A stretch of 37,478 nucleotides of DNA from Candidatus Kaiserbacteria bacterium (lineage in GTDB: Bacteria; Patescibacteriota; Minisyncoccia; Phycocordibacterales; UBA2100), in the NCBI GenBank assembly GCA_027082835.1, contig JALWTP010000040.1:1-37478 (forward strand), written 5' to 3'. Every line of letters begins with the position of its first letter. Positions within the stretch are counted from its first letter, which is position 1. The position numbers and the translations under genes are program-made. The notes under the pieces are model-generated. The model did not search any database, had not been told where the DNA came from, and saw nothing but the letters and a program-made list of their open reading frames with translations. Below are positions 2,310 to 37,172 of this stretch, in pieces.

Positions 2310-2855
2310 ATGGCAAAACAAACAGGAGATCAACAAAAACATTGGTATGTTATTCATACCTACTCAGGATACGAAGAAGCGGTTGCTCGCAACCTAAAAC
2401 AGCGTATTGCATCTATGAATATGCAAGACCAGATTTTTGATGTTATCGTACCGACCGAAAAGAAAGTAAGCGTAAAGGGCGGAAAGCGTGTGGAAGCAAA
2501 CGAAAAGATATATCCGGGATATGTATTGGTAAATATGATTGTAAATGACGAATCATGGTTTGTGGTTCGCAACACTCCTCGTGTTACCGGGTTCGTTGGA
2601 GCGGGCACACAGCCGGTTCCTGTTGAGGAGAGCGAGGTAGACGCACTCTTTAAACGAATGAATTCTGATACCGCAAAACACAAGATTGAACTTAGCATTG
2701 ATGATGCGGTGATTATCGCAGATGGTCCATTTAAAGATCTTGAAGGTAAAGTGGGAGAGATAGATGAAGAACGAGGAAAGGTGAAGGTTATGGTCCCTAT
2801 GTTTGGACGAGAAACACCGGTAGAATTGGACTTTTTGCAGGTAAAATCAATTTAA
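2310..2855 (+). CDS. nusG: transcription termination/antitermination factor NusG
   Basis: The HWYVIHTYSGYE N-terminal NGN motif and a C-terminal KOW region (GPFKDLEGKVGEID) are present. Synteny secE-nusG-rplK. Confidence 0.95.
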   Translation: MAKQTGDQQKHWYVIHTYSGYEEAVARNLKQRIASMNMQDQIFDVIVPTEKKVSVKGGKRVEANEKIYPGYVLVNMIVNDESWFVVRNTPRVTGFVGAGTQPVPVEESEVDALFKRMNSDTAKHKIELSIDDAVIIADGPFKDLEGKVGEIDEERGKVKVMVPMFGRETPVELDFLQVKSI

Positions 2856-2906
2856 AAGAGAGAAAGCATAGACTTTTGTTAAAAAATAAGTAATATACGC
2901 ATCATT

Positions 2907-3329
2907 ATGGCAAAAAAAGTAGAGAGACAATTAAAGCTTCAAGTTCCCGCGGGAAAGGCAACACCGGCACCGCCACTTGGTCCGGCGCTTGGACAGGCTG
3001 GTATAAACATCGGAGAATTCGTTAACCAATTTAACGACCGTACTCGCGAGATGATGGGAGACATCATCCCCGTTGTTATCAGTGTATACGACGACCGGAG
3101 CTTTGACTTTGTATTAAAGACACCTCCAGCATCAAGCTTACTGCTTAAAGCAATTGGAGCAAAAAGCGGATCAGGAAAAAATGTTACCAAAAAAGTAGGA
3201 AAGGTAACCCAAAAACAATTGGAAGACATCGCAACACAAAAAATGGAAGATCTCAGTGCAAACGATGTAAAAGCAGGAGCAAAAATAATCGCAGGAACTG
3301 CTCGCTCAATGGGAATTGAGGTTGAGTAA
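2907..3329 (+). CDS. rplK: 50S ribosomal protein L11
   Basis: [34 protein letters not shown] is the canonical L11 N-terminal signature. Confidence 0.95.
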
Positions 3330-3394: not shown

Positions 3395-3444
3395 TTGTAT
3401 AAGAGTATGGTTTAATCGTGGCCGGACAAACAAAGGAGGACTAC

Positions 3445-3963
3445 ATGAACATTCTTACAACGCTGTATTCGCCACTTCCCATTGACATCAATAAATCAGT
3501 TGGGTATGCGTATCTTCTGATGGATATGGTGGTGAATCACATTGCTTCCTCTTATGGGACAAACAAAACAGGTGGATACCAATATATTCAAGGACGAGAC
3601 GGATCTTGTTTACTGTTGCGAAAAGTGGGGTATATACCCACTGAGGCAGATGAGAAGAAATATAAGGGCTTTGCGCTTGAAAAAGGGCAAAGGCTTCGTT
3701 CTCATCCGGAACACACTCTGAGCTTTCAACCCATGGATGTGGCACAAAAGAAATACCAAGGTGCGGTGCGGATGGAAAACGGATGGATCCATTCATTTTC
3801 CGGATTCTCTCCAAATAACGACGAGGCAATCGCAATGGCGGTCGGTGTCCGTATGGGGTGGTCTTCTTTGGAGTATGCCTGCAAAGTGATGCACATATCT
3901 CAAAACGAAAAAAGCTTTTGGAAAATGCACAAACTGTCTAAGTTAGTAACCCAAGATAAGTGA
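3445..3963 (+). CDS. hypothetical protein (172 aa), no family recognised
   Basis: AAGGAGG (3433-3439) lies 5 nt before the ATG at 3445. The track ORF begins at an upstream GTG at 3418. It occupies the position where rplA is normally found. Confidence 0.6.
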   Translation: MNILTTLYSPLPIDINKSVGYAYLLMDMVVNHIASSYGTNKTGGYQYIQGRDGSCLLLRKVGYIPTEADEKKYKGFALEKGQRLRSHPEHTLSFQPMDVAQKKYQGAVRMENGWIHSFSGFSPNNDEAIAMAVGVRMGWSSLEYACKVMHISQNEKSFWKMHKLSKLVTQDK

Positions 3964-4017: not shown

Positions 4018-5364
4018 TTATTTGAGCACAATGTCGTGTTCACCACGCCTTGTATCAAACCGATCAGGTTCGTCGTCAAGGTGAAGAACCAATCCTGCCG
4101 CCTCAAACTTCGTTTGAAGTGCACCGGCAATTTGAATAGCACGCTCGCGCAGTGTCGGATGGACAAAGCGTGTTGCACGCAATTCTGCCAAATACACAAG
4201 CGCCGGCAGTGTTCCCGTCACGCGATTACTCGTGAGATACCCCATCGCAATGTAGTATTGCGCTATTTCCACACTTGCGTTCAATTCAGCAATAGCGTCT
4301 TCTTGCACTGCGACAAGTGACCTTACTTCTTTACGCACATCCTCGGGGAGCTCATTGAGATACCAAGGATGGAAACCGAACTTGGTTGTGAGAAGTGGCA
4401 TCCGTTGAGTAACAGCGCGATGTCGCTGAATATCACGGAACGAGCCGAAGTCCAACAAGAATTCAAACTGTGCCATACCGGCTTCAGCAAGCCATTTGGG
4501 CAGCTCAGTTTTTGCAGGACGCCGTTTCAAGAGAGAATATAGCAGCTCTGAGACATCTATATCACAACGCATCATCGCAAACTCTGGCGCATACTCATTG
4601 TGATAATAGTACTCATCCATAGCAAAAGAGGAGTAGTCCTCGGTTGCTTCATATCGTTTGTGGTCAAACGAATTTGGGTGAGCCTGCTTAAGTGCCTCTT
4701 CTATTGCGTGTGCTACACGACGCACCTCCAAAAGAGGGTGGTGGTGCAGTGTTTGCAACTTATCCGCAGCTTGGCGCAGGTTCGTATGCCATGCGAGGTT
4801 CGTTGTGGCACCTGCCGGCAAGAATCCACGAAGGATATCAAACGCTCGTGCGTTGATTGCCTTCTCGTAGATCGCCTCTTCTTCACCATCTTGACGAGGA
4901 AAGCGTTTTTTGAGCGCTTTGCGTACTTTTGGCATAGAAGTGCTATAAAAAGTACGCCACCGTTCGAGGATTTCGTCCCCCAAGTCTTTTTCAGTAGGGT
5001 TCTTGAACGGCAAATGCTCAAAATCCACATAGCGTGTGGACGACTCCTGTCCCGAGTACAGCGGCCAATCTTGAATTGCCTTTGCCACCAACATAGACAC
5101 GCCTTCAACGAAAATAGTGGTAGTACCACAGTCTCCGATTGATTTGTGTCCATAGCCAACATAGAAGTTTTTCATAAAGTTTTCAGCGCCGCGTTTTTCA
5201 AGCACTTTCAAATGACCCTCAAGGCCTTTCGTGGATCGGGAATGCAGTGCTTGGAGCATTGCTTCTGCTTCGGGGTTGATGATAGCACCGGTGTTGAGCA
5301 CGATGATATGCCCGCCACCTTGAATGTCCACTTTTGTGTGATTCAGATTTTTCAGGGTTTTCAT
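4018..5364 (-). CDS. thyX: long (448 aa) two-domain ThyX-like FAD-dependent thymidylate synthase
   Basis: The N-half has GHKSIGDCG...EGVSMLVAKAIQDWPLYSGQESSTRY, which matches the S-x-QES-x-RY part of the ThyX motif. The C-half has FRDIQRHRAVTQRMP, which matches the RHR part. The gene is divergent from dcd-tmk. Confidence 0.6.
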   Translation of the reverse strand: MKTLKNLNHTKVDIQGGGHIIVLNTGAIINPEAEAMLQALHSRSTKGLEGHLKVLEKRGAENFMKNFYVGYGHKSIGDCGTTTIFVEGVSMLVAKAIQDWPLYSGQESSTRYVDFEHLPFKNPTEKDLGDEILERWRTFYSTSMPKVRKALKKRFPRQDGEEEAIYEKAINARAFDILRGFLPAGATTNLAWHTNLRQAADKLQTLHHHPLLEVRRVAHAIEEALKQAHPNSFDHKRYEATEDYSSFAMDEYYYHNEYAPEFAMMRCDIDVSELLYSLLKRRPAKTELPKWLAEAGMAQFEFLLDFGSFRDIQRHRAVTQRMPLLTTKFGFHPWYLNELPEDVRKEVRSLVAVQEDAIAELNASVEIAQYYIAMGYLTSNRVTGTLPALVYLAELRATRFVHPTLRERAIQIAGALQTKFEAAGLVLHLDDEPDRFDTRRGEHDIVLK

Positions 5365-13461: not shown

Positions 13462-15492
13462 ATGGAGCAGGAAGATTTTTCAAATAATGGCGGTCAAAAA
13501 CATACTTTTCCTAAAAAAGGGAAAATAAGTCAGCTGAAACAGCAGATGTATTCGCGTTTTAAACAACCGCTCAAGCATCCACGCAGAACACTCAACCCTA
13601 TACAGCCGTCTGTAAAAAGTGACTGGGAAAGAAAGGGTATTTCAATGAGTACTTTACAAAGGGCACAGGATAAAGAAACACTGACAAGTGAAAGTGCGTC
13701 AATGGTAGAGACAATGCCACAGGCAGCCAGACAAACATACAAAAGGCATTCATTTCCTATGAAATTTCTATTATTTTCTTTCGGTGTATTTGTATTGGTT
13801 GGAGGAGTGTCTGCTGTATATTTGCTTTCAGGATCAAACACCGTATCGGCACGCAAAATAGAAGTGTCAGTAAACGGACCGCGCACACTTGAAGGAGGAG
13901 ATATTTTGCCATTACAAATTACAGTAACTAACAAAAACAACACCACTCTGGAACTTGCTGATTTGATAATAAAATATCCAAGTGGTACACATAGTCCTGC
14001 TGATCTTACTCAAACTTTGGAAACCCAGAGAATAAAGTTAGGCTCTATAGAGCCTGGCGGAGTACGCAATGGAGAGGTAAAAGTGGCACTTTTCGGGCAA
14101 AATGGAGAAGTAAAAGAGTCTTCTGTGGAACTTGAATATAGACTAGCCAATTCAAGCGGGCTGTTTTCTACTCAACCGGTGAAGCATTCTGTCGTTATCT
14201 CATCTTCGGCGTTGGATATGTCTCTTGAAGCAAATGGGCAGGCGATAGCGGGACAGCCACTTACTATGACTCTTAAGGTCACTTCAAATTCAAAAGAAAC
14301 CATGGGAGATGTTGTGCTGCATCCCACATATCCTTTTGGCTTTAAAGTAGTGAAAACAATTCCAGAAATGAAAAAGGATTCCGAACTTTGGGAGTTGGGG
14401 AACTTAAACCCCGGAGATACCAAAACAATAAAAATAACGGGGACATTAGATGGCCAAGAAGGTGATGTGCGCACTTTCCGATTTGTAGGTGGTACACGAA
14501 AGGTGCCACAATCACACAAAGTAGATGTAGTGCTTTCACAGTTTGAAAAACAGATTGCTGTGTCGCGACCGTTTTTGAATATGTCGCTTTCATATGATGG
14601 AAAGACAGATAAGGATTATGTGGCACAGGCTGGGGTGCCAATACAGGTAAGCTTGAATTGGAAAAATAATCTTTCAGTTCCTCTAACAGATGTAACCATC
14701 GCCGCAACGATAAAAGGAAGTGGGTTTGACCCGTTCACTATTGCACCCGACAGGGGCTTCTACCGATCTGCAGATTCTCTTGTTATATGGGACAAAACCA
14801 CGACAGATGGAGCTTTGGAGCGTATTGAACCGGGCGAGGAAGGATCTTTTAGCATACGATTGACTCCTAAAATCGCGAGCAAGCTCATACATATAGAGAA
14901 TCCAACTATTGTTTTTGAATTACATGCAGCAGGACAACGCCTTTCTGAAAGCAATGTACCTGAGATTATAAAATCAGTAGTAACAAACGAAATAAAAGTG
15001 GCAACCGATGCGTCATTTACTTCTCGTGGGCTTTATTTTGATAATCCTTTAGGAAGCACCGGGCCACTGCCTCCACAAGTAAATCATGAGACAACCTATG
15101 GTATATTGTGGGAAATATCAAATACGACCAATACTGTTAAAGATGCAGTGGTAACTGCGGTACTGCCACCATATATGCGATTTGAAGGTAATGTCAATCC
15201 TACTGATGAACGAGTCGTCTTTAACGAAAATGACCGTACAATTACATGGTATGTGGGTACGATGCTGGGAGATACCGGTGTGGCGGATACACCACCAAAG
15301 AGAGTTCTTTTCTCGGTAGGTCTTATACCAAGTACCACCCAAGAAGGAAGAATTCCAATTCTTATAAAAAACCAAAAATTTACTGCCACAGACACCTTCA
15401 CGAATAAAGAAATAACCACTAAGGCACATGATACTTCTGCAATGCTTCAAGAAAGTCGGTTCGTGGATTATTATGGCAAAGTAGTGCGGTAG
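13462..15492 (+). CDS. large membrane-anchored extracytoplasmic protein, function unknown
   Basis: 676 aa. It has a roughly 95-aa basic N-terminal tail, one TM helix (FLLFSFGVFVLVGGVSAVYLL), then about 550 aa of beta-rich sequence with CARDB/DUF11-like stretches (GGDILPLQITVTNKNNTTLE). Confidence 0.65.
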   Translation: MEQEDFSNNGGQKHTFPKKGKISQLKQQMYSRFKQPLKHPRRTLNPIQPSVKSDWERKGISMSTLQRAQDKETLTSESASMVETMPQAARQTYKRHSFPMKFLLFSFGVFVLVGGVSAVYLLSGSNTVSARKIEVSVNGPRTLEGGDILPLQITVTNKNNTTLELADLIIKYPSGTHSPADLTQTLETQRIKLGSIEPGGVRNGEVKVALFGQNGEVKESSVELEYRLANSSGLFSTQPVKHSVVISSSALDMSLEANGQAIAGQPLTMTLKVTSNSKETMGDVVLHPTYPFGFKVVKTIPEMKKDSELWELGNLNPGDTKTIKITGTLDGQEGDVRTFRFVGGTRKVPQSHKVDVVLSQFEKQIAVSRPFLNMSLSYDGKTDKDYVAQAGVPIQVSLNWKNNLSVPLTDVTIAATIKGSGFDPFTIAPDRGFYRSADSLVIWDKTTTDGALERIEPGEEGSFSIRLTPKIASKLIHIENPTIVFELHAAGQRLSESNVPEIIKSVVTNEIKVATDASFTSRGLYFDNPLGSTGPLPPQVNHETTYGILWEISNTTNTVKDAVVTAVLPPYMRFEGNVNPTDERVVFNENDRTITWYVGTMLGDTGVADTPPKRVLFSVGLIPSTTQEGRIPILIKNQKFTATDTFTNKEITTKAHDTSAMLQESRFVDYYGKVVR

Positions 15493-15531: not shown

Positions 15532-16833
15532 ATGGAAAACACCAAAGACACAACAATGGAGAAAGTGGTAAGTCTCGCAAAAAGGCGTGGGTTTATATTT
15601 CAAGGTTCTGAAATATATGGTGGCCTTGCGGGGGCGTGGGACTATGGACCACTTGGCGTTACACTCAAAAACAATATAAAACGAGCGTGGTGGCGTATGT
15701 TTGTTGAGGAGCGAGACGATATGTATGGATTGGACGCTGCAATTTTAATGAATGAGAAGGTGTGGGAAGCAAGTGGGCACACAGGAGCGGGATTTACCGA
15801 CCCGTTAGTAGAATGCGAAAAATGTCACAAAAGATATAGAGAAGATCACCTTGAAAGTACAGAAAAATGTCCGGAATGTGGCGGAAAACTGGGGGAAAAG
15901 AAAGATTTTAACCTTATGTTTGAAACAAAAGTGGGTGCGCAAGGAAATGCCAAAAGTTATTTGCGGCCGGAAACAGCGCAGGGCATCTTTGTTAACTTCA
16001 AAAATGTAGTAGACACAATGCGACCAAAACTACCATTTGGTATTGCGCAGATTGGAAAAGCGTTCCGGAATGAAATTGCCCCTCGTGAGTTTCTTTTTCG
16101 TACGCGCGAGTTTGAACAAATGGAGATAGAGTACTTTGTCTATGAAAACGATTGGGAACACTTTTTTGAAGAGTGGCGAATACGCATATGGAATTGGATA
16201 GATGTATTGGGGCTGTCTCACGAGCGTGTGAGGGAAGTAGATGTTGTGGGGAACGACTTGGCACACTATTCAAAGAAAACCATTGATTTTGAATACGATT
16301 TCCCTGGTAAAGGATTTGACGAATTATCAGGATTGGCATATCGCACTGCGCATGATTTAGAGAGTCATATAAAAGGAAGCGGGCAAAGGTTGGTATATAC
16401 AGATGCCGAAGGGAAGACTACGGTACCACATGTTATAGAGCCTTCGTTTGGATTAGATAGAGCGGTAATGGCAGTACTTACACAAAGTTATACCGAAGAT
16501 AACTTGGGAAAAGACACTAGAGTATTTCTTAAATTGCCAAAAGACCTGGCGCCGGTGAAGGTTGCCGTATTTCCTTTGATGAAAAACAAACCGGAATTGG
16601 TGGCAAAGGCGCGAGAAGTATATGAAGAAGTGAAAAAGATTATTCCAAACAGTATGTTTGACGACAACGGTAATGTCGGAAAGAGATACAGACGCCAAGA
16701 TGAAATAGGAACACCGTGGTGTGTTACTGTGGATTTTGACACTCTTGAGGACAATACTGTAACTCTACGCAATCGCGATACAGGAGAACAGGAGAGGATC
16801 GCATTAAGTGCACTTATAGCAGAACTTCATTAA
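15532..16833 (+). CDS. glyQS: glycine--tRNA ligase (class II, dimeric GlyQS type)
   Basis: RRGFIFQGSEIYGGLAGAWDYGPLGV and FRNEIAPREFLFRTREFEQME motifs. An alternative start exists at 15556. Confidence 0.95.
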   Translation: MENTKDTTMEKVVSLAKRRGFIFQGSEIYGGLAGAWDYGPLGVTLKNNIKRAWWRMFVEERDDMYGLDAAILMNEKVWEASGHTGAGFTDPLVECEKCHKRYREDHLESTEKCPECGGKLGEKKDFNLMFETKVGAQGNAKSYLRPETAQGIFVNFKNVVDTMRPKLPFGIAQIGKAFRNEIAPREFLFRTREFEQMEIEYFVYENDWEHFFEEWRIRIWNWIDVLGLSHERVREVDVVGNDLAHYSKKTIDFEYDFPGKGFDELSGLAYRTAHDLESHIKGSGQRLVYTDAEGKTTVPHVIEPSFGLDRAVMAVLTQSYTEDNLGKDTRVFLKLPKDLAPVKVAVFPLMKNKPELVAKAREVYEEVKKIIPNSMFDDNGNVGKRYRRQDEIGTPWCVTVDFDTLEDNTVTLRNRDTGEQERIALSALIAELH

Positions 16834-25297: not shown

Positions 25298-25651
25298 CTA
25301 TGGTTTTGGCGTGTATATCACATTAATCTCTTGTTTTTTAGTTTTGCCAAATTTGTCCTGTGCTTCCAATGTAAGGTGATTGAGCCCTTTTGTGAGCAGT
25401 ATGGTTCTGCTAAACATATTATTTTCGTCAATCATTGCCTCTTTTCCTTCAATGGTTAATTTGGCGACATTTCGCACGGTCCCTGCTATGTTTATTTTTT
25501 GGTCGTGTACCGTGAGGGTGTTGTTAAAGTCCAATTTTATTTCCGGACCATAGAGCACATTGCGAGCTTCAAAATATGCATACCCAAGTATCAAAATAAA
25601 AAGTATTACAAATACATATTTGAGCAAATGTGAATGAAAAGTGATTGCCAT
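25298..25651 (-). CDS. 117-aa membrane-anchored protein, function unknown
   Basis: An N-terminal TM helix (YVFVILFILILGYAYF) is followed by a beta-rich domain of about 85 aa. It lies between ftsK and recA on the same strand. Confidence 0.55.
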   Translation of the reverse strand: MAITFHSHLLKYVFVILFILILGYAYFEARNVLYGPEIKLDFNNTLTVHDQKINIAGTVRNVAKLTIEGKEAMIDENNMFSRTILLTKGLNHLTLEAQDKFGKTKKQEINVIYTPKP

Positions 25652-28133: not shown

Positions 28134-28289
28134 GATTTTAATTTACATTTATAACTAAGAATACATACCATAATACCATATTACAGACATCAATATGAGC
28201 ACTCGGTATGCAGGTACAAAGTATAAAAGCGACACACCACTACGATACTTTGTACAAACTGCAACTACTGTGTCGCAATTAAAACTCTA

Positions 28290-28317
28290 TTGACCATAAA
28301 GGACATACACTTATAAT
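28290..28317 (+). promoter_or_regulatory. near-consensus sigma70 promoter of the wHTH gene
   Basis: TTGACC (28290-28295), 16-nt spacer, TATAAT (28312-28317). The spacer is filled by an ATAAAGGACAT box. Confidence 0.55.
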
Positions 28318-28464
28318 GGACATATTCATAAAAGACATAAAGGACACGATAAAGGACATTGTATAAAGGACAAATCTAATGGACATACAATGCATAAATG
28401 TCCTTTATATAAAGGACACGAGTATGGCAAAAGAACTATATAACAAGCGTTCTATAAAGGACAT
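28296..28464 (+). repeat. cluster of ten ATAAAGGACAy boxes (nine direct, one inverted)
   Basis: By hand count, direct copies start at 28296, 28313, 28328, 28337, 28349, 28363, 28376, 28409 and 28454, and an inverted copy at 28398. The perfect 20-nt palindrome TGTCCTTTATATAAAGGACA spans 28399-28418. Confidence 0.85.
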
Positions 28465-29254
28465 AACAAAGATGCTTAATAAAAGCACGACAGCATTCAT
28501 TAATCCGTTTGGTGAAAATACAGTAGGAGCTGTTTTGTATGCTCGAGCAGAGCGACTTGCCACCGCGACCTATTTGGTGACCAATGCGATACCGTACAAA
28601 GAAGAAATACGAAATACCATTCGCAGACAAGCGCGTCACCTTATCGCACTTGTTTTAGAGTTGCGATCAGGTGTGCATACTGTCGGCACACAATCGGTTA
28701 CCGATCTTGTTGTATGTGTGAAGCATTGTGTATCACTTATAGATTTGCTTTATGTTTCCGGACTTATTTCAGAAATGAACGCAGAAGTGCTCAAAGGAGC
28801 ATATACCGACTTTGGTATGTACATACAAAATGCAATGATCGACAATCGCGCGGATGCAGTTGCGATTGCACAGGACTTTTTTGCACAAGTTCCGGAACAG
28901 CAAATAGAAAAAGATGCTTCTCAAGGACATAAAGGACAAAGTAAAAAAAGTATAAAGGACATAAAGGACACGATAAAGGACACGGAAAGTATAAAGGACA
29001 TAAAGGACACGCAACAAAAAAACAGCGTTAGAAAACAACCACTTAATGAGCGTAAGCGATTGGCGCACCGTAGAATGCAGGTAATAGATGTTATTACTCA
29101 AAAGGGAAGAGCAAGTAGTAAAGAGATTCAAATTGCGCTACCGAACTTAAGTGCAAAGATGATTTCTCGCGAATTGCACTCGCTTGTAGAAGATGGAGTT
29201 ATTGAGCGTGAAGGAGAGAAAAGATGGGCTGTATACTCGCTATCTCTCGCCTAA
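28424..29254 (+). CDS. winged-helix (DeoR-like HTH) DNA-binding protein with helical N-domain and IKD-repeat linker
   Basis: The C-terminus RMQVIDVITQKGRASSKEIQIALPNLSAKMISRELHSLVEDGVIEREG looks like a wHTH. The ATG at 28424 is preferred over 28379, which lies within the box array. AAAGGA sits 7 nt upstream. Confidence 0.65.
   Translation: MAKELYNKRSIKDITKMLNKSTTAFINPFGENTVGAVLYARAERLATATYLVTNAIPYKEEIRNTIRRQARHLIALVLELRSGVHTVGTQSVTDLVVCVKHCVSLIDLLYVSGLISEMNAEVLKGAYTDFGMYIQNAMIDNRADAVAIAQDFFAQVPEQQIEKDASQGHKGQSKKSIKDIKDTIKDTESIKDIKDTQQKNSVRKQPLNERKRLAHRRMQVIDVITQKGRASSKEIQIALPNLSAKMISRELHSLVEDGVIEREGEKRWAVYSLSLA
28920..29010 (+). repeat. seven further ATAAAGGACAy boxes inside the wHTH coding sequence
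   Basis: Copies start at 28920 (degenerate), 28929, 28952, 28961, 28973, 28991 and 29000. They are translated as KGQSKKSIKDIKDTIKDTESIKDIKDT. Confidence 0.85.
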
Positions 29255-29952
29255 TCATAAAAAATAGCAATGATAGTTGAAAAATGGCTTTGTGAAGTCA
29301 TTTTTCTGTAACTTTACTCATTTTTATCTCTTTATTATGTAATTTGGGCTATTTTTATTTTAACACTTTTTGGATCTTGCGTCATATAACAACACACAAT
29401 TAATAGGTATGAAAACCGTTGACTTTATACAATAAACCAGTATCCTTATAGCACCACTAAAGCCAAGAATACTTGCCGTTTATAACGGTCGCTTTAGTGT
29501 ACGCGATATGCACATATCGCTGTTTGATAAAATAAGGAAAGTATTCGCTATCCACATTACCCACTTGGGTTTATTGCTCACTTGGCTGAGCGATATATAA
29601 TGTGGAGGAAGCTATGTATTTTTCATAGCGATGTGTACCTTGAAAATGTTTCTCGTAAGCACGGTAAAAGGTGTATTACGAAGAGCTACATAATCACATC
29701 TTATAATTAAATGCATTTAGTTATGCATTGTTTTCCGCACGGACGCTCTGTTCAGAATATGAAAAAGTAACTCAGTATATCGGTCTTCATTATGTTAGCT
29801 ACCTCGCAATTCTATTGTGTCGAAATATATGATAGAAGCGAGATGGCAATTAAAAGCAAAGTCGCATTGCAATGAAGTCAAACAACGCCATTACAATTTA
29901 TTATTAGTAGTAATTATTGTTGTTTGCTTTTCAAGTAATGTGGCGCCTACAG

Positions 29953-29974
29953 TAAATTGTATGCATACAATTTA
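29953..29974. promoter_or_regulatory. perfect 22-nt palindrome TAAATTGTATGCATACAATTTA (candidate operator)
   Basis: Exact dyad symmetry, about 190 nt upstream of the surface-protein ATG. Confidence 0.5.
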
Positions 29975-30026
29975 TTGTGGATGAAAAAGTGTGGTGTCTA
30001 TTTGGTCGACAAATAGCGTGCCGCAG

Positions 30027-30095
30027 CTATGGACGTCTCCGGGCATCGAATGATACCTCGGGGATATTTCCCCGGGAACGCCGAGGGCCCCATAG
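30027..30095 (+). promoter_or_regulatory. GC-rich structured element in the 5' region of the surface-protein gene (class unknown)
   Basis: The closing stem is CTATGG/CCATAG. The inner hairpin is CTCGGGGA-tatt-TCCCCGGG, and mutually exclusive CTCGG/CCGAG and CCGGG pairings are possible. The GC content stands out from the AT-rich flanks. Confidence 0.35.
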
Positions 30096-30162
30096 TCAAA
30101 AAGGTCTATAAGTTTGTAGGACTTGTATTACACGACAAGTACTACATTTAATTAAATAAATT

Positions 30163-33100
30163 ATGAGTAATGTATTAACAAACAAAGTTGCCGCAGGTGC
30201 GGTTGCTGTTGCAATGATCTTCTCATTTGCATTTGCATTCGCTACACCAGCGAAAGCTGCAACAGTGGAAGAGCTTACAGCACAAATAGCTTCACTATTG
30301 GCAACAATTTCATCTCTACAAGCACAGCTTGCAGATATGAAGGGTGGTTCATCAGCAACCACAGGTGGAACATACAACTTCACCAAAAACCTTAAAGTTG
30401 GAATGAGTGATCCTGAAGTTAAAGACTTACAGAAGTTCCTTAACGCAAACGGATTTGCCGTTTCAGCTACCGGAGCAGGATCAGCTGGACACGAAACAGA
30501 ATACTTTGGTTCACGAACCAAAGCAGCTGTTATTGCATGGCAAAATGCAAACAAAGAACATGTTCTTGCACCAGTAGGACTTTCAGCAGGAACAGGATAC
30601 TGGGGATCAAGCTCACGAGCATACGCTAATTCTCTTGGAAGTAGCGATACCACAACAACTGGTACCACTACAACAACTCCAACAGGAACAGGTGTAACCG
30701 TGTCAGCTGCCGCACAACCGGCAAATGGTCTTGCAGTTCAAGGAGCATCACGCGTTCCATTTACAAAATTCACTATAACCAACAACAGCGGATCTAATCA
30801 AACAATTAATTCTGTTACTGTTGAACGAGGTGGATTGATGGATGATTCTGTTTTCTCTGGAGTAGTTCTCCTTGACGAGGACGGTACCCAACTTGGAAAT
30901 GCTCAAACACTTAATTCAGTACATCAAGCAACAATTGGTGAGGCTGTTACTATCCCTGCAGGTGCTTCACGCACATTTACTGTAGCAGGTAATATGGCTT
31001 CATCTCTTGGAGCAAAAGCTGGACAAGTGGGAACACTTTCAGTGGTAGCAGTAAACACTTCAGCAACAGTTGCAGGTTCACTTCCTATCACCGGAGCAGC
31101 ACATACAATAAACGCTACTCTTACAATTGGATCATTGACCTCAACAACCGTGTCTTCATTTGATCCAAATGGAGCGCAAACAAAAAACATCGGAGACACC
31201 GGAGTGCGATTTACCGGACTTCGCTTTACTGCAGGTTCTGCAGAGGATTTGATGTTTAACGGAATCCGATTCCGAATGAACGGATCTGCTTCAGCATCAG
31301 ACCTAGCAAACTTAATGGTAAATGTAAACGGTACCGATTATCCAGCAACTATGTCAGCTGACGGACGATATGCTACAGCTATGGTTCCCGGTGGCGTACT
31401 TGTAAAGAAAGGATACTCAATTGATGTATACATCAAGGGAGATATTGTTGGAAGCAACGCAGCTGGACGAAAAGTAGAATTTGATGTTGACAAAACATCA
31501 GATGTATACTTCACTGGCGTAACATACGGTTATGGAGTGGTGCCTTCAGCAGGTACTGGTACTGTAAGTACAGCTGCTACACATGGTACAACTATTACCA
31601 ATAGTCAACCTTGGTTCCAAGGTTCAACAATCTCAATCTCAGGAGCTTCAGTAACATCTGTTGCGAAGGCATCAGAAGTGCCAGCAGCAAATGTTGCAGT
31701 GAATATTCCTAATACAACATTAGGAGGATTTGTTCTTGATTTGAAAGGAGAACCTCTTAATGTTCAGAGCCTAAAGCTTCATGTAACATATTCGGTAAAC
31801 CGTGCTGCACAAACAGACGTATTGACTAATGTCACATTAGTTGACGAAAATGGTCAAGTGATTGCCGGACCAGCAGATGAGGTGGGAAGTTCTGTAACAG
31901 CGGGAGCAGTTACTCTTTCAAGTAGTATGACATTTCCAACAGGGCGTCATGTCTACACAGTAAAGGGTACAATTGACCCTCAAATTGCTTCTGGAACAAT
32001 TACTATTAGTACAGCACCAAATGTTGACTGGACTAATGTAACCGGGCAAACAACAGGTAATACTATTACCTTGACCACTGGATCATTTAATATGAATCCA
32101 ATGACAATCAAGGCTGCTTCACTTGCAGAAACAGTTGCTGCAACTCCGGTTGCACAACATATTGTTGCCGGAGCAAATGATGTTGTTCTCGCAACATTGC
32201 GATTTGACGCATCAAATTCTGGAGAAGATATTCGCTTCTCAAATCTTCCTGTACAATTTACTGGTAATACCAATCTCTCATCATGTCGAGTAAAAGATGG
32301 TTCAACCAGTCTAACAACGGGAAGTAATGTAATTAGTAATCCTGGTTCTACAGGTACATTCGTATTTGACAATTCGCTTATCGTAAAGCGAGGCACAGTT
32401 AAATCTCTTGATATCGTATGTAACGTAGTAGGATCTGCTTCTGGTACAATCAAAGCCGGTATGGGTGCAGCTTCAGGAATAACTGCAACTGGTGTTGATT
32501 CAAACAATACTGTTACAGTAACTGGATCAGCTGCTTATGGCCAATTAATGACGGTTGGTACGGGTGCAGTAGTTGTTTCAACTGATGCAGCATCACCTTC
32601 AACAGCTCTTGTTTCTGGTGGAAGTACCGGAGTAACGCTTGGTGTGTGGAAGATGCGCGCAACTAATGAAGATGTTCGCGTTGAGAAACTTGGGCTTGCT
32701 CTTACTGGTCACACACAAGATTTGACCAATGTAACTATCTGGAATGGCAGTACACAACTTGCTGGACCAGTTGTATTTACCGGTTCAACACAGGCAGTAA
32801 CTCTTACCAACCCACTTGTATTAAGTAAAGACACTGATACTACAATCACTATCAAAGGTGATATAGCAGCTATCGGAGGTTCTAACCCGGGTACCAGTGG
32901 TTCACACTTAGCTGTAAACTGGAATAATGCTTCAGGTAACAACCAATTTACCGGAGTACAATCGGGTAATGCTATTACTCCATCTGGATCAACTTCAGTT
33001 TCAGGAGTATACGCGTACAACTCGTTCCCAACAGTTGCTAAGCTTGTTACTCCTTCAACTGTTCTTACAACAGGAACTATTGAAACTTCAAGATTTAGTA

Positions 33101-33579
33101 TTACTGCTGACGCAAACAGTAGCATTAGTCTAGATCAAATAGCGGTTGATACTTCTGTTTCTGGAGCTACTACAACAGCAAACTCACTTTATGTATACGC
33201 ATACAGTGACGCAGCTATGAGTCAACCGGTTGCAGGATTTGCCTCTGGTAAGTTAAATACTACAGGTGCTGCATTAGGAGCAGGAACTAAGGTTCCATTT
33301 AGTGCAGTATTACAAATACCTGCAGGGGCAACTCGTTACTTCAAGACAGTAGCAACAGTTACTGCGGTAGCGACAGGTAACTCAATATCTACCAAGATAT
33401 TAGGAGATTCTGCATATTATGCAGAAAATACAGCTGCAAACGCTAAAGGAGCAAATAACTTCGTTTGGGCAGATGACCACAATGGTGCAACTGCCACAGG
33501 AGATGCATTCTGGACAAACGGATTCTCAGTTGCAGGCCTTCCTTCATTAGGAACGGACACAACAGTTCTCTCTAAATAA
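30163..33579 (+). CDS. 1138-aa secreted surface (S-layer-like) protein with peptidoglycan-binding domain and about six tandem beta-sandwich-like modules
   Basis: Signal peptide ending AFATPAKA|ATVEEL, a coiled segment, and a PG_binding_1-like region (GMSDPEVKDLQKFLNANGF...YFGSRTKAAVIAWQ). A poly-Thr linker follows, then about 950 aa rich in T/S/G/A/V/N with only two Cys. Confidence 0.75.
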   Translation: MSNVLTNKVAAGAVAVAMIFSFAFAFATPAKAATVEELTAQIASLLATISSLQAQLADMKGGSSATTGGTYNFTKNLKVGMSDPEVKDLQKFLNANGFAVSATGAGSAGHETEYFGSRTKAAVIAWQNANKEHVLAPVGLSAGTGYWGSSSRAYANSLGSSDTTTTGTTTTTPTGTGVTVSAAAQPANGLAVQGASRVPFTKFTITNNSGSNQTINSVTVERGGLMDDSVFSGVVLLDEDGTQLGNAQTLNSVHQATIGEAVTIPAGASRTFTVAGNMASSLGAKAGQVGTLSVVAVNTSATVAGSLPITGAAHTINATLTIGSLTSTTVSSFDPNGAQTKNIGDTGVRFTGLRFTAGSAEDLMFNGIRFRMNGSASASDLANLMVNVNGTDYPATMSADGRYATAMVPGGVLVKKGYSIDVYIKGDIVGSNAAGRKVEFDVDKTSDVYFTGVTYGYGVVPSAGTGTVSTAATHGTTITNSQPWFQGSTISISGASVTSVAKASEVPAANVAVNIPNTTLGGFVLDLKGEPLNVQSLKLHVTYSVNRAAQTDVLTNVTLVDENGQVIAGPADEVGSSVTAGAVTLSSSMTFPTGRHVYTVKGTIDPQIASGTITISTAPNVDWTNVTGQTTGNTITLTTGSFNMNPMTIKAASLAETVAATPVAQHIVAGANDVVLATLRFDASNSGEDIRFSNLPVQFTGNTNLSSCRVKDGSTSLTTGSNVISNPGSTGTFVFDNSLIVKRGTVKSLDIVCNVVGSASGTIKAGMGAASGITATGVDSNNTVTVTGSAAYGQLMTVGTGAVVVSTDAASPSTALVSGGSTGVTLGVWKMRATNEDVRVEKLGLALTGHTQDLTNVTIWNGSTQLAGPVVFTGSTQAVTLTNPLVLSKDTDTTITIKGDIAAIGGSNPGTSGSHLAVNWNNASGNNQFTGVQSGNAITPSGSTSVSGVYAYNSFPTVAKLVTPSTVLTTGTIETSRFSITADANSSISLDQIAVDTSVSGATTTANSLYVYAYSDAAMSQPVAGFASGKLNTTGAALGAGTKVPFSAVLQIPAGATRYFKTVATVTAVATGNSISTKILGDSAYYAENTAANAKGANNFVWADDHNGATATGDAFWTNGFSVAGLPSLGTDTTVLSK

Positions 33580-33672
33580 GTTTTAGAAAGAATAATCCGG
33601 ATAACTTCTATAGTTAATCGGAGTGTAAAATCTAGAAAGTTAATGCATATAGTATAAACTTCTCTAGTCTTG

Positions 33673-33707
33673 AAAACCCCAAGCGCGCCGGCGCTTGGGG
33701 TTTTCTT
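33673..33707 (+). terminator. rho-independent terminator 1 after the surface-protein gene
   Basis: AAAACCCCAAGCGC-gccg-GCGCTTGGGGTTTT. Confidence 0.75.
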
Positions 33708-33739
33708 GTATCCAATTCTAAATTTTCTCAAGAGTTATT

Positions 33740-33762
33740 TTTCCAAGGACCGCCCTTGGAAA
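33740..33762. repeat. 23-nt hairpin repeat TTTCCAAGGACCGCCCTTGGAAA, copy 2
   Basis: Identical to 9851-9873. The flanks are not conserved. Confidence 0.8.
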
Positions 33763-33855
33763 AATCCAACTAATGTTCCATGGTCACTCTGGAATATTAA
33801 ATGGAACACCATATTGGAATAGTGGATTTCAAGAGGAAATAAGCAAAAAGGAACA

Positions 33856-33887
33856 AGCCCCAAGTGCGCAAGCACTTGGGGCTTTTC
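33856..33887 (+). terminator. rho-independent terminator 2 (paralogous to terminator 1)
   Basis: AGCCCCAAGTGC-gcaa-GCACTTGGGGCTTTT. Confidence 0.7.
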
Positions 33888-33980
33888 CTATACCTACTCA
33901 AATAAACTAAAGAGAAAAACAATCAAACAAATAGACAAATAAGTGGGCAAGGAGTCCCCTTACCTATTTGCTCACATTTT

Positions 33981-34016
33981 TACAAAAGAAAAAGGCGACC
34001 CTGAAAGTCGCCTTTT
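33981..34016 (-). terminator. terminator of the vWA gene
   Basis: AAAGGCGAC-cctgaaa-GTCGCCTTT. On the minus strand it is followed by TTCTTTTGT. Confidence 0.65.
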
Positions 34017-34058
34017 GCAGTGAGCAATTCTGCGCTTTATAGTATTTAGCGCAGCGAT

Positions 34059-34778
34059 TTATACTGACAATTCGTGTAGCATTTTTTGTTGAATGCCTTC
34101 TGTATACGAATTATATGTCCCGGGCATTATAAAGCCGTTTTTTGTGCGAACAAGTCTTGAAAGAGTACGCATTTGATCTTCTGCACTTATTTCCACAGCA
34201 AATACATTTACTGTCCCTCCGTAGTATTCCACCTTGTCGCGGATTTTTGCCATTTGCGTTTGTCTGTCTGGAAATATTCCAGCGTCGGTAGAAATATCGA
34301 TGACCAGATCTCCCTTTCCTCGTGAGGTGTATATATGCAGAGCTTCAGATATTGCACTGATGTGGTCGGTGGAAGAATTTGGTAAAGTAGATTGTGGTGT
34401 ATTTTCTTGAATGCGAAGTGCAATTTCTTCTGTGTCTTTTCTTGTGGTTACCACAACACCGTTATCGGAAACGATATTGAGTATATTTTCAGGACCTGCC
34501 CAACACAGCACATATACCAATGCATTTTGCATAATCAAAAGGTCTTGAACCTTTGGATTAAGAAAAGCAGCGATATGCCCATCGCGCTGTGTTTTCCAGT
34601 GAGGTACTCTGCCTTTCTGATGGGGTGTTGCCGGATGATTTTCATACATACTCCCCGAGGCGTCCATAAGGACAATGAAAGTAATTCTGGGGTGGGTACG
34701 CGCTCGCCCAAGCGAAGGTATAAGCAAGAAAGGTGATGCACACAGACCCGCAGTAAATGCTCGTCGTTTCATAGCCAA
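34059..34778 (-). CDS. secreted vWA-like protein resembling DUF1194, with twin-arginine-like signal
   Basis: MAMKRRAFTAGLCASPFLLIPSLGRA is followed by MDASGSM (a MIDAS-like DxSxS), then CWAG, VIDISTDAG, GGTVNVFAV and a C-terminal FIMPGTY..IQQKMLHEL segment. The order matches my recollection of DUF1194. Confidence 0.55.
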   Translation of the reverse strand: MAMKRRAFTAGLCASPFLLIPSLGRARTHPRITFIVLMDASGSMYENHPATPHQKGRVPHWKTQRDGHIAAFLNPKVQDLLIMQNALVYVLCWAGPENILNIVSDNGVVVTTRKDTEEIALRIQENTPQSTLPNSSTDHISAISEALHIYTSRGKGDLVIDISTDAGIFPDRQTQMAKIRDKVEYYGGTVNVFAVEISAEDQMRTLSRLVRTKNGFIMPGTYNSYTEGIQQKMLHELSV

Positions 34779-34963
34779 GCTCCTTCTTGTTGTGTTTGTC
34801 TGTGTAGATAGTAGTGCAAAGAGGGTGTATATGCAACTCTCAATTCAATACTATAGCACAATATCATATAGCATATCGCAGAGTATTTTTATATATCGAA
34901 GATGTGATGGTAAGATAGCCGTTTGGTATTGCGCAGAGGCGCGATTGCACCTATTATAGGGGT

Positions 34964-35107
34964 ATGAAAAGTAATTTTTTAGATATGCTATTTGGATTTT
35001 TACTCATTATAACCATAGGTATCGCAGTGTCGCTTGCAACAAATTATTACGGAGTTACCACGAAACAGCTAGGAGCAGTTATAGTATCGTTAATTACAAT
35101 GCAATAA
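34964..35107 (+). CDS. 47-aa hydrophobic peptide (tentative)
   Basis: My translation is MKSNFLDMLFGFLLIITIGIAVSLATNYYGVTTKQLGAVIVSLITMQ. It is below the track cutoff and has only a weak, closely spaced AGGGG upstream. Confidence 0.3.
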   Translation: MKSNFLDMLFGFLLIITIGIAVSLATNYYGVTTKQLGAVIVSLITMQ

Positions 35108-35115
35108 TACATTCT

Positions 35116-35760
35116 ATGAGATGTGTGCAGAAACAAAATGAAAGAGGAAATACTCAGATACTTGTGGTCTTTTTTGTTGGTATGTTTATAGCCATAGGAG
35201 GATATTCTCTTTGGAAAGTAGGTATAGAAGGAGGAAATACTTTGGTAGTTACTGCTAATTCAAACAAAGAACACATAGCTGCAGTAGTGAGTGCTGATGT
35301 GTTGAAAGCACGAGAAGTAAAAAAACATGATGCTAAAGTAGTTCAGAAAAAAGAAGCAGAAAAAAGAGTACAAGAAAATACTATAAACCAAAATATAAAC
35401 GCAGAAGCAAATGCATTGCAGGCACTTCGTAGTGCTCAGAAAGCATTGGAAGGCACACTCCTGGAGGCGCAACAAATACTTTCAGACACATTGCATACAC
35501 AACAGGCAAAGCAAAAACGAATATCTATCGGTGGCCCATGGGACAACTTTTGGTGGCGTGGTGATATGCCGGGAGAGAATGACCCTACGCCAGGGGTAAA
35601 CAAAATGTATTTTGCACCCATTCAAGGGGTCGGAGGTGGAGGTGGTGGAGCTGCTGCACCTGCTTCATCACCATCGTCCTCAGCCGGCGGTGGAAGTATA
35701 GGAGGTGGAGCACCGTCAGGCGGACCTCCGTCAGGACCTCCCGGAGCAGGGCCGTTATAG
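35116..35760 (+). CDS. membrane-anchored coiled-coil protein with TadE/G-like N-terminus and Gly/Pro/Ser-rich tail
   Basis: The N-terminus NERGNTQILVVFFVGMFIAIGGYSL is followed by a Lys/Glu/Gln-rich helical region and the C-terminal GGGGGGAAAPASSPSSSAGGGSIGGGAPSGGPPSGPPGAGPL. Confidence 0.55.
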   Translation: MRCVQKQNERGNTQILVVFFVGMFIAIGGYSLWKVGIEGGNTLVVTANSNKEHIAAVVSADVLKAREVKKHDAKVVQKKEAEKRVQENTINQNINAEANALQALRSAQKALEGTLLEAQQILSDTLHTQQAKQKRISIGGPWDNFWWRGDMPGENDPTPGVNKMYFAPIQGVGGGGGGAAAPASSPSSSAGGGSIGGGAPSGGPPSGPPGAGPL

Positions 35761-35828
35761 AAATAAGTTCGTAAATAACTCATTTGGACTCATCTGACCT
35801 TTTACCGTCAACGACTACAAAAATCACC

Positions 35829-35860
35829 TAAAAACCTTCCATTCGAATGGAAGGTTTTTA
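35829..35860 (+). terminator. rho-independent terminator
   Basis: AAAACCTTCCATTC/GAATGGAAGGTTTTT palindrome. Confidence 0.7.
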
Positions 35861-35994
35861 GAAGTTTTAAAAAGGTAAGCAAAAGAAGGAGTACAAACAA
35901 AGATAGATGCATAGTAAATATGGCAAATTAGTAGTGAGATCAGGTAAGTGGCCCAGGAGACTCCTGGGCCACTGGTGTCCATATATCATTTTTT

Positions 35995-36031
35995 TGTATA
36001 TAAAAACAGGCACGGTGCAATACCGCGCCTG
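35995..36031 (-). terminator. terminator of the 99-aa minus-strand gene
   Basis: ACAGGCGCGGT-attgc-ACCGTGCCTGT on the minus strand, followed by TTTTTATATAC. Confidence 0.65.
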
Positions 36032-36050
36032 TTGTATGTTCTTGAAATTA

Positions 36051-36350
36051 TCAAGCTCTCATTTGTTCTTGAGGGTGTTTTTCTCTCACGAAAAACGAGA
36101 GTGCCTTCAAAAAGTCTTGAGAACGCTCGGGTAAGATCATCCCGAGGTCGTCGGTCATTTTAGACCGGTCATGTGCTTTAAGTATACACAAAACCTCGGC
36201 ACTCATCTTCAAGATATTTTCTTTGAAAAGACGAGGATCGCGACACCAAAGTGAGACCAAATTGAGTACTCTCCATGCCTCGTCCTCGCTGTACGATTTT
36301 TTCATAACGTGAAAAATTTCCTTCACGAAGCTATATGTTGATTGAGTCAT
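36051..36350 (-). CDS. hypothetical 99-aa helical protein
   Basis: GAAAGAGG lies about 6 nt upstream of the ATG on the minus strand, and a terminator lies downstream. No family recognised. Confidence 0.55.
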   Translation of the reverse strand: MTQSTYSFVKEIFHVMKKSYSEDEAWRVLNLVSLWCRDPRLFKENILKMSAEVLCILKAHDRSKMTDDLGMILPERSQDFLKALSFFVREKHPQEQMRA

Positions 36351-36662: not shown

Positions 36663-37172
36663 ATGGCAAAATCAAAAGAACAAAAGAAGGAAATTCTTGA
36701 CCGTTTAACGAGTGCTTTTACCACTTCACCTGCGTCTGTTTTTGTTCACTTTACCGGACTTCCGGTAGGAGAGGAAACTCAAATGCGTAGTGCACTTCGC
36801 AGTGAAGGAGTAGGTTACTTTGTTGCAAAGAAAACCTTGATCGGAAAGGCATTAGACGAAATGTCAGTTGAAGGGGAACGACCTTCTCTGGACGGAGAAA
36901 TAGCAATCGCGTATCAAAATGATGACGAAAGTTTTGCTAAAGACTCCACTGCGCCTGCTCGTAACATACATACTTTTGTTAAAAAGTATGGCGATAAGGT
37001 AAGCATTGTCGGAGGTATCTTTGAAGGTGGATTTATGGATGCTGCTCAGATGAATGAGGTGGCAACCATTCCATCAGTGGATACACTGCGAGGTATGTTT
37101 GCAAATGTTATCAACTCACCTATACAAGGGTTGGTTGTTGCATTAAATGCAGTTGCAGAAAAGAAAGCGTAA
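36663..37172 (+). CDS. rplJ: 50S ribosomal protein L10
   Basis: The K(E)QK..I N-terminus and the GLPVGEETQMRSALRSEGVGYFVAKKTL segment are typical of L10. It lies upstream of rplL. Confidence 0.95.
   Translation: MAKSKEQKKEILDRLTSAFTTSPASVFVHFTGLPVGEETQMRSALRSEGVGYFVAKKTLIGKALDEMSVEGERPSLDGEIAIAYQNDDESFAKDSTAPARNIHTFVKKYGDKVSIVGGIFEGGFMDAAQMNEVATIPSVDTLRGMFANVINSPIQGLVVALNAVAEKKA

Follow-up and report, generated by a model that had tools for sequence, protein, structure and literature searches.

The stretch of DNA analysed here (37.5 kb, hereafter the window) comes from a hydrothermal-vent metagenome and is a housekeeping stretch of a small-genome bacterium, Candidatus Kaiserbacteria, in which positions 28134 to 35760 encode a winged helix-turn-helix (wHTH) protein, a very large secreted peptidoglycan (PG)-binding surface protein, a protein with a von Willebrand factor A (vWA) fold and a protein of 214 aa. 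Our principal conclusion, which we hold with moderate confidence, is that this block represents a conserved module, in which the wHTH protein acts as an autorepressor and is followed by a surface protein gene that has an independent promoter and is controlled through a long leader, with a variable tail of further genes downstream. The original prediction for this DNA had instead described an accessory, surface- or host-interaction island placed under the control of the wHTH protein or, alternatively, the remnant of an integrated replicon.

Homologues of the wHTH protein were used to collect 90 further loci, which are numbered (L001, L004, L091 and so on), and box statistics were obtained from 85 distinct relatives. 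The sequence inspected per genome amounted to 6-37 kb, giving a total of ~645-650 kb of loci. More than 533 relatives of the wHTH protein were present in metagenome contigs and, where homologues of the block proteins carried names, these belonged only to Patescibacteria (Kaiserbacteria, Paceibacterota, Minisyncoccia). Homologues of the 1138-aa surface protein are designated BIG-type. Contigs from two DNA runs that were placed on the window represent the same strain only (X1 being the source sample and X2 being of low depth). The main features of the block are as follows.

28290-28317, + strand: promoter of the wHTH gene, with -35 TTGACC (28290-28295), a 16-nt spacer and -10 TATAAT (28312-28317), matching 11/12 consensus positions, with boxes over both the spacer and the -10
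28297-28463, + strand: upstream and 5′ box array of about ten TAAAGGACA-type boxes
28379-29254, + strand: open reading frame (ORF) of the wHTH gene, with a probable start at 28424 that gives 276 aa, matching database copy P0001
28921-29009, + strand: box array within the coding sequence (CDS), seven boxes encoding the linker repeat SIKDIKDTIKDTESIKDIKDT
29255-30162: non-coding stretch of 908 bp, with no tRNA and no Rfam match
29548-29601, + strand: promoter of the surface gene, with a CTATCCACA box (29548-29556), -35 TTGCTC (29574-29579) and -10 TATAAT (29596-29601)
29603-30162, + strand: 5′ leader of the surface gene, ~555 nt
30163-33579, + strand: surface protein gene, encoding 1138 aa with a signal peptide and a PG_binding_1 domain (Pfam)

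Conserved gene order of the module

A common gene order is kept in loci of the Paceibacteria type within the Candidate Phyla Radiation (CPR): recA, a small ORF and ftsK (minus strand) are followed by the wHTH gene (plus strand), a gap of 0.4-1.6 kb and the gene for a large secreted PG-binding protein (plus strand). This order persists while the identity of the wHTH protein drops to 22-30%. The ftsK gene is divergent from and adjacent to the wHTH gene in 49 of the 54 loci with enough upstream sequence, and a co-oriented gene for a secreted PG-binding protein is located downstream of the wHTH gene in all loci with enough downstream sequence (45/45). Thirty-one of these 45 downstream proteins are BIG-type, and the remaining 14 are proteins of 600-700 aa that carry a signal peptide and the same LTVGSTGxDV...GYFG peptidoglycan-binding motif. 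When the locus was approached in reverse, from homologues of the surface protein, 3/3 had a wHTH-type gene of 253-287 aa upstream, with ftsK divergent, and one of these three loci lies in the complete 721-kb genome CP174359, where it is chromosomal at 93-107 kb. The rplJ-rplL genes are found within a few kb downstream in many relatives, the module being located between recA-ftsK and rplJL.

Comparison among relatives, which the original prediction had asked for, showed that no relative with enough sequence lacks the core of the block (regulator, leader and surface gene), and that only the vWA and 214-aa genes vary. Few parts of the window are as conserved in gene order as this core, and we read it as ancestral chromosome, neither a genomic island nor an integrated replicon, because its order is conserved, the surface protein is strongly conserved, the GC content is ordinary (0.36-0.44, like the remaining window, with 0.357 at 29-30 kb) and rplJ-rplL is nearby. 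The hallmarks of a genomic island, namely variable presence, a shift in composition and mobility genes at the borders, were not found for the core, and a tRNA/tmRNA scan of the window gave no hit. The accessory island originally proposed is thus contradicted, as is the remnant of an integrated replicon by the conserved synteny and the chromosomal position in CP174359, and in annotation the block should not carry the label genomic island. The idea that the genes form one unit stands for the wHTH gene, the structured non-coding region and the giant PG-binding protein, which keep the same order in very divergent relatives. The inclusion of the last two genes in this unit holds only in part: at least one other lineage has a vWA gene at this position, and none has the 214-aa gene there.

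Box arrays and the wHTH protein

The wHTH gene carries two arrays of short boxes ~600 bp apart, one in its promoter region and one in its own CDS, as originally predicted. Searching the window for TAAAGGACA at <=1 mismatch gave 22 matches, 17 of them within 28297-29009, and none of 100 shuffled sequences (0/100) reached 22. In the upstream array, an inverted box pair, TGTCCTTTATATAAAGGACA (28399-28418), is separated by 5 nt from the ATG at 28424, and codons 11-13 of the gene contain a further box (28455-28463). A 31-nt segment of the in-CDS array (28952-28982) is 97% identical to the upstream segment at 28328-28358. The layout in close relatives comprises a box between the -35 and -10 elements, one over the -10 and several in the 5′ untranslated region (UTR); the TTGAC(C/T)...TATAAT promoter with interleaved boxes recurs in L004-L009, and the palindromic box pair abuts the ATG in the window, L001 and L004-L009. 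Inverted copies of the box also occur, including within genes, which argues that double-stranded DNA, rather than RNA, is the target.

Across relatives the box has the 9-mer consensus TAAARGACA, the core of which, AARGACA, was counted on the gene strand in the 85 distinct relatives, with the following densities.

200 nt upstream of the wHTH gene: 10.6 per kb (~45-fold enriched)
wHTH CDS: 5.7 per kb (~25-fold enriched)
next 700 nt (downstream intergenic region): 0.29 per kb
elsewhere (background): 0.23 per kb

Two or more upstream boxes are present in 59/79 loci and three or more in-gene boxes in 74/85, the in-gene boxes being concentrated at the 5′ end of the gene and in the decile that encodes the linker. 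Clusters of >=3 boxes are private to the wHTH gene with two exceptions (in ~650 kb), and no TAAAGGACA-like boxes were found in positions 29010-36171 of the window. One contig from run X1 (depth 22.5 vs ~14-17 for the main strain) spans a 599-nt skip between the two arrays (28362/28962) and has 27 unmatched letters; this is most likely a related organism's gene aligned via the shared boxes, the alternative being a deletion variant between direct repeats.

The in-CDS boxes encode (I/V)KD repeats using the synonymous codons that match the box. Asp after Lys is encoded by GAC in 76% of cases (268/354), compared with 41% for other Asp residues in the same genes (p = 2e-29) and 36% for Lys-Asp in neighbouring genes, and Ile before Lys-Asp is encoded by ATA in 75% of cases compared with 35% elsewhere (p = 7e-20). 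Since these codon choices spell TAAARGACA, the DNA sequence itself is under selection, and the in-gene boxes are not a mere by-product of a KD-rich peptide. Overlaps of this kind are known from lambda O, where the origin iterons are located in the region that encodes the O linker, and from Spo0J/ParB, where parS lies within spo0J. As in these systems, boxes that resemble binding sites are found here within the coding region of an inter-domain linker, so that two codes overlap, in this case with codon bias. Unlike these systems, the boxes here extend over the promoter as well, the proteins come from unrelated families and nothing points to a role in replication or partition. The dual-coded operator and peptide repeat would represent a clean natural case of overlapping DNA and protein constraints. 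We also considered a covariation of the box variant (AAG vs AAA) between promoter and gene, lineage by lineage, which was suggested by L002 and failed across the 85 loci.

The wHTH protein belongs to a family of 2,347 cluster representatives (50% identity) detected at E<=1e-30 in a profile search, all of ~245-330 aa and matching over their full length. Neither Pfam nor NCBIfam names this family, apart from a marginal C-terminal HxlR/ArsR match: the C-terminus scores 23.4 bits against Pfam HxlR (cut-off 20.8), and the best NCBIfam match, ArsR/SmtB, reaches 25.1 bits against a cut-off of 55, which leaves the protein outside that family. The AlphaFold2 model has a predicted local distance difference test score (pLDDT) of 79.7 overall, exceeding 90 at residues 207-273, and consists of three parts.

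Residues ~33-144: four-helix bundle, with Foldseek matches to 2gsc (Xcc0516), 2rld (BT_0352) and Avd (8ub7/8ubb) at a template modelling (TM) score of ~0.8
Residues ~145-205: disordered KD-rich linker, no matches
Residues 207-273: winged helix, with Foldseek matches to MecI, YodB, SqrR, CzrA, ArsR-type proteins and AspA (1okr, 5hs7 and 6o8k among them)

The recognition helix, SEKTIQREL, is almost invariant across relatives, which fits the conserved box, and we infer that the winged helix recognises the 9-mer TAAARGACA. In fold, this domain resembles that of the autoregulated MecI/BlaI, ArsR/SmtB and HxlR/YodB repressors, and the boxes likewise lie over the gene's own -35, -10 and start codon and include an inverted pair. 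It differs from these repressors in that the DNA-binding domain is C-terminal and joined through a disordered linker of ~60 residues to an Avd-like bundle, in that ~10+7 mostly direct repeats replace one or two palindromes, with a second array in the CDS, and in that no sensing site is recognisable. The bundle superposes on Avd and '23S rRNA intervening-sequence' bundles over residues ~33-144 (TM ~0.8, root-mean-square deviation (rmsd) ~2 A), with target-normalised TM scores of 0.72-0.83, rmsd values of 1.8-2.8 A and weak E-values of 5e-3 to 6e-2 in Foldseek, and its sequence matches the PHROG 'Avd protein of DGR' (E 7e-4). In contrast to the Avd family, it gives no match to Pfam PF05635 (Avd/23S rRNA-IVS) even at E<=5, no reverse transcriptase is found among the annotated window genes and the bundle is fused to a winged helix. 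PHROGs gave no phage-specific match on the block beyond generic HTH, Avd and endolysin-PGBD. By analogy with Avd-type relatives, the bundle is assumed to form a pentamer.

Promoter, leader and product of the surface gene

At the place equivalent to the surface promoter of the window, 59 of 63 loci contain one TATCCACA followed by TATAAT, usually with a TTTGCA-type -35 element between them, and the -10 begins about 31-39 nt past the box in the loci that were counted by eye. Exact TTATCCACA, which is the DnaA-box consensus, is present in 47/53 leaders, and the window copy, CTATCCACA, matches the DnaA box at 8/9 positions. There are 79 exact copies of TTATCCACA in 645 kb of loci, 61 of which are at the surface promoter, on the + strand; other copies tend to precede TATAAT before unrelated genes (Y1-transposase-like, MscS-like and ftsK, the last in two loci). 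Since the same 9-mer with TATAAT precedes unrelated genes, the DnaA-box-identical site looks like one that serves a general factor rather than a surface-specific one, for which DnaA is the obvious candidate. From the sequence, separate transcription of the surface gene from its own promoter is the best supported arrangement. The 9-mer GTTATCCACA, usually with TATAAT, was noted at L007:15451, L035:6665, L036:6508 and 7302, L040:10989, L044:12529, L072:11588, L012:5726(-) and L039:5130(-), with genes for small membrane proteins among those that follow it.

The distance from this promoter to the start codon is 350-700 nt across relatives. The following elements were located in the leader of the window and in the non-coding DNA preceding it.

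29419-29532, + strand: clade-specific element, comprising TTGACT-16-TATCCT (29419-29446), a Y-shaped fold of ~80 nt, a terminator-like hairpin (29503-29520) and a T-rich tract
29797-29847: P1 helix with a GUGUCGA loop
29949-29978: hairpin (palindrome)
29999-30017: second GUCGA-loop hairpin
30027-30097: GC-rich junction
30116-30147: pre-start hairpin

The leader has a minimum free energy of -167.5 kcal/mol compared with -129.4+-6.4 kcal/mol for shuffled sequences (z -5.96), and six relatives share invariant sequence blocks together with 23 compensatory pairs. The P1 helix opens at AGCUA and closes a loop starting UUGUGUCGA. Its strands are wholly different between lineages, yet they remain complementary, and across 30 loci the duplex energy with the own partner is -15.2 kcal/mol, compared with -11.7 kcal/mol when partners are swapped (p = 2e-6). 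GUCGA, often placed in a hairpin loop, is present in 50/53 leaders, with 85 copies compared with 22.8+-4 expected, and is strand-specific, its reverse complement being at expectation. The two palindromes at 29503-29520 and 29949-29978 change in sequence and keep their pairing in relatives, and on this pattern they appear to be RNA or terminator hairpins rather than operators. The original description of a structured non-coding region of ~900 bp with palindromes and a GC-rich element is borne out, all of these being present where they had been placed. Rfam (15) gave no match at gathering scores over the whole window and only noise (E 1.7-8.5) at E<=10 over 29250-30200, and a consensus from MAFFT and RNAalifold over 25 divergent leaders recovered no structure, as variable insertions break the alignment. 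A small protein hidden in the leader was considered and rejected, as no reading frame is conserved.

The Y-shaped element is found only in the clade of the window (L001, L004, L005, L007, L008), with a fold z of -3.74 and modest compensatory support in six sequences. It cannot fit in distant relatives because the distance from the wHTH stop codon to the box is only ~60 nt there. It may encode a small RNA or serve as a second, tandem promoter for the surface transcript, located upstream.

Long 5′ leaders are known for the mRNAs of major surface proteins, as in slpA of Lactobacillus, slpA of Thermus thermophilus and vapA of Aeromonas. The locus analysed here resembles these in having a strong promoter far upstream of a secreted envelope protein and a highly folded leader. 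It is unlike them in that the leader is several times longer and has a covarying helix and strand-specific GUCGA loops across the whole class, in that its promoter is flanked by a DnaA-box-identical site and in that the protein has no match to solved S-layer proteins.

The surface protein comprises a signal peptide (residues 1-32), a helix (35-59), a three-helix PG_binding_1 domain (~80-160), a Thr-rich linker and ~8-9 beta-sandwich domains that are immunoglobulin (Ig)- or macroglobulin (MG)-like. At least 953 homologues were found, and full-length matches are at 45-57% identity. Its AlphaFold2 model (pLDDT 83.7) matches generic multi-Ig/MG chains in Foldseek (PrgB Ig-like domains, alpha2-macroglobulin, integrin legs), with no S-layer protein among the top 50, and a PDB sequence search gave no match to any solved structure. 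A metatranscriptome study of three consortium-cultivated Paceibacteria places proteins with a PG-binding domain and a similar predicted structure, which may be homologues of the 1138-aa protein, in the top five secreted proteins by expression (PMC10936435), and a preprint describes putative S-layer proteins in Patescibacteria (10.1101/2024.05.28.596244). The 1138-aa protein is likely to be the major surface protein.

Regulatory models and the variable tail

The direct results are the anatomy of the locus and its conservation, the distribution of boxes, the bias in codons, the covariation in the RNA and the folds of the proteins, and on these we base a model that proposes DNA binding, repression and a role for the leader, together with any link between regulator and surface protein. 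An oligomer of the wHTH protein, held together by the Avd-like bundle, would occupy the arrays over its own promoter, 5′ UTR and start codon and in the linker-coding DNA, and cooperative autorepression, by looping or as a roadblock, would keep the level of the wHTH protein constant. The surface gene would be driven, separately from the wHTH gene, from its own strong TATCCACA-flanked promoter, and the GUCGA-loop leader of 350-700 nt would control the stability or translation of the mRNA for a very abundant, PG-anchored Ig-repeat protein. The DUF1194/vWA and 214-aa genes would fill a variable slot between the module and rplJL.

Several points weigh against this model. Under the start-codon calls used, 20/79 loci have fewer than two upstream boxes, and the upstream and in-CDS variants (AAAGACA vs AAGGACA) do not strictly covary between lineages. 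We infer the binding of the wHTH protein to TAAARGACA boxes from the location of the boxes alone, and the predicted role of the bundle as an oligomerisation domain is drawn from a likeness in fold with weak Foldseek E-values (5e-3 to 5e-2). Conserved adjacency is weak evidence for a functional link between the regulator and the surface protein, because recA and ftsK are equally conserved neighbours, and further box arrays, hence a larger regulon, could lie outside the 6-37 kb inspected per genome. In RNA-seq and metatranscriptome look-ups, no RNA runs were listed for the window or for two of its relatives.

The wHTH protein might, as the original prediction had it, be dedicated to regulating the surface gene, with the vWA and 214-aa genes perhaps also under its control, within a single surface-display regulon. 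Adjacency and co-orientation in 45/45 loci, and in 3/3 from the surface side, are in keeping with this, the in-CDS array is located ~590 bp upstream of the surface promoter and could act at a distance, and by analogy PagR of Bacillus anthracis, an ArsR-type winged-helix protein, controls S-layer genes. However, boxes are confined to the regulator's own promoter and CDS, with no TAAAGGACA-like box in 29010-36171, and in the 85 relatives those in the downstream intergenic region are at background on both strands (0.29 and 0.43 per kb vs 10.6 upstream). Moreover, the surface gene is preceded by a conserved promoter of its own, flanked by a different site, the synteny is unspecific given that recA and ftsK are equally conserved neighbours, and the vWA gene is found here in one other lineage only and the 214-aa gene in none. 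Control of these genes by the wHTH protein is therefore disfavoured, and we consider a dedicated surface regulator unlikely. Binding of the regulator to its own promoter only, which the original prediction had named as part of the outcome that would count against it, comes close to what the distribution of boxes indicates, as judged from sequence rather than binding data.

The two dense arrays of ~7-10 mostly direct repeats, ~600 bp apart and essentially unique within each 6-37 kb locus, could also be a centromere-like or nucleoid-organising site, the protein being a segregation or chromosome-structuring factor tied to ftsK rather than to the surface gene (compare ParB/Spo0J, and AspA, a wHTH protein that binds centromeres and spreads), a reading with which the divergent adjacency of ftsK in 49/54 loci and the appearance of AspA among the winged-helix matches in Foldseek agree. 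We regard this as very unlikely, given that boxes over the gene's own -35, -10 and start codon form the classic layout of autorepression, that no gene for a ParA-like ATPase is found in the annotated neighbourhoods and that the fold matches are generic for winged helices. Least probable of all, to the point that we give it hardly any weight, is that the block is what remains of a plasmid or phage replicon that once integrated, with the wHTH protein an iteron-binding initiator (compare lambda O) and the non-coding region its origin. The iteron-like direct repeats in and beside the gene, a DnaA-box-like 9-mer 540 bp past the repeats and the AT-rich non-coding region (GC 0.357 at 29-30 kb) would suit such a replicon, but the position between recA-ftsK and rplJL is kept in dozens of divergent genomes and the CP174359 locus lies at 93-107 kb, with no tRNA, no break in composition, no phage-specific match and no Rep homology (Pfam, NCBIfam, PHROGs). 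An origin in the non-coding region was likewise rejected: each locus has one DnaA-type box at a fixed distance from the promoter, DnaA-like 9-mers in the window are at chance (10 vs 10.6 expected), and the block shows neither a clear minimum in cumulative GC skew nor flanking genes that diverge from it.

Beyond the autorepressor model that we favour, we raise tentatively, as well below an even prospect, that the locus represents a new regulatory design, found in a family of several thousand members. An Avd-like bundle would display several winged helices on flexible linkers, with the linker-coding DNA itself serving as a co-evolving operator, and a new class of GUCGA-loop leader behind a DnaA-box promoter would link synthesis of the major envelope protein to envelope status or the cell cycle, perhaps because the wHTH protein also binds the leader RNA. 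The dual-coded operator and linker, the architecture that joins an Avd bundle to a winged helix and the GUCGA leader were unmatched in searches of Pfam, NCBIfam, PHROGs, Rfam and PDB. A large part of bacterial diversity belongs to the CPR/Patescibacteria, whose gene regulation and envelope building are almost unknown; the locus offers class-wide handles in the form of a putative transcription factor for which a 9-bp site is predicted, a DnaA-box-identical promoter element and a candidate leader RNA ahead of the gene whose product is probably the most abundant protein of the surface.

Downstream of the surface gene, the block contains three further features.

33672-34016: terminator region between convergent genes, with twin hairpins (33672-33705 and 33855-33884) and further hairpins at 33946-33964 and 33990-34016
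34059-34778, - strand: DUF1194 (vWA fold) gene, PF06707 at 46.3 bits vs a cut-off of 27
35116-35760, + strand: gene for the 214-aa protein, with an N-terminal hydrophobic helix, a coiled-coil-like middle, a GPWDNFWW...DPTP motif and a Gly/Pro-rich tail

Apart from the twin hairpins, the window contains no copy of CCCCAAGYGC-N4-GCRCTTGGGG; with these hairpins, the signal peptide and the PG_binding_1 domain in place, the earlier description of a giant PG-anchored modular protein with twin terminators is upheld. The same applies to the secreted vWA protein, which scores above the DUF1194 cut-off and has a D-x-S-x-S motif like that of a metal ion-dependent adhesion site (MIDAS; LMDASGSM) and an RR-containing, signal-like N-terminus. 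The first residues of this protein, MAMKRRAFTAGLCASPFLL (34700-34778, minus strand), resemble a twin-arginine (Tat) signal, which would not usually be expected in a reduced CPR genome. Two homologues of the DUF1194 gene were found (37% and 33% identity), one of which, in the marine locus L091, is convergent right after the surface gene, with wHTH/ftsK/recA on one side and rplJL on the other. The DUF1194 gene is thus found beside the surface gene only sporadically, but not at random. In other loci, genes that resemble Y1 (IS200/RayT-like) transposases, with the motif FYHxYNRGxxKR, are located a few kb past the surface gene (L036:6508, L051:10326(-), L059:7259), in the slot that holds the vWA gene in the window.

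The 214-aa protein is lineage-specific. Its description as a Tad-like membrane protein with a flexible tail is retained for the hydrophobic segment and the Gly/Pro-rich tail and dropped for Tad/TadE, for which there was no match in Pfam at E<=5 or in NCBIfam. In L091 and L001 the equivalent slot is occupied by a 173-aa protein; a relationship between the two proteins was considered and rejected, as there is no similarity. The motif GPWDNFWW(R/N)GD.PG.DDPTP....(F/W)APIQG(V/I)GG is common to the 214-aa protein (35530-35600) and the C-terminal part of a 585-aa secreted ORF (L005:16290-16451), and may represent an unrecognised small domain or a sorting motif.

The remainder of the window encodes several aminoacyl-tRNA synthetases, nusG, rplK, recO, thymidylate kinase, rpsF, efp, recA, ftsK and rplJ. 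The block at 28-36 kb, described originally as the only accessory-looking one in the window, is not quite its sole envelope-related one, since a second large envelope-type protein is encoded at 13462-15492 (676 aa, with DUF11 and a transglutaminase-C Ig-like match), between recO and a gene for a class II aminoacyl-tRNA synthetase (15532-16833). The nusG-rplK genes (2310-3329) are separated by 33 kb from rplJ (36663; region 36663-37172) rather than adjacent to it, and an ORF of 181 aa (3418-3963) directly after rplK, at the place expected for rplA, has no Pfam match at E<=1e-4. An ORF of 448 aa (4018-5364, minus strand) has a ThyX (Thy1) domain confined to residues 47-231 and is far longer than the usual ThyX. 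Finally, the small ORF that is kept between recA and ftsK across the lineage (25298-25651, minus strand; also L002:7100-7585 and L094:427-774) encodes 115-161 aa and gives a weak Glucodextran_B match in relatives.

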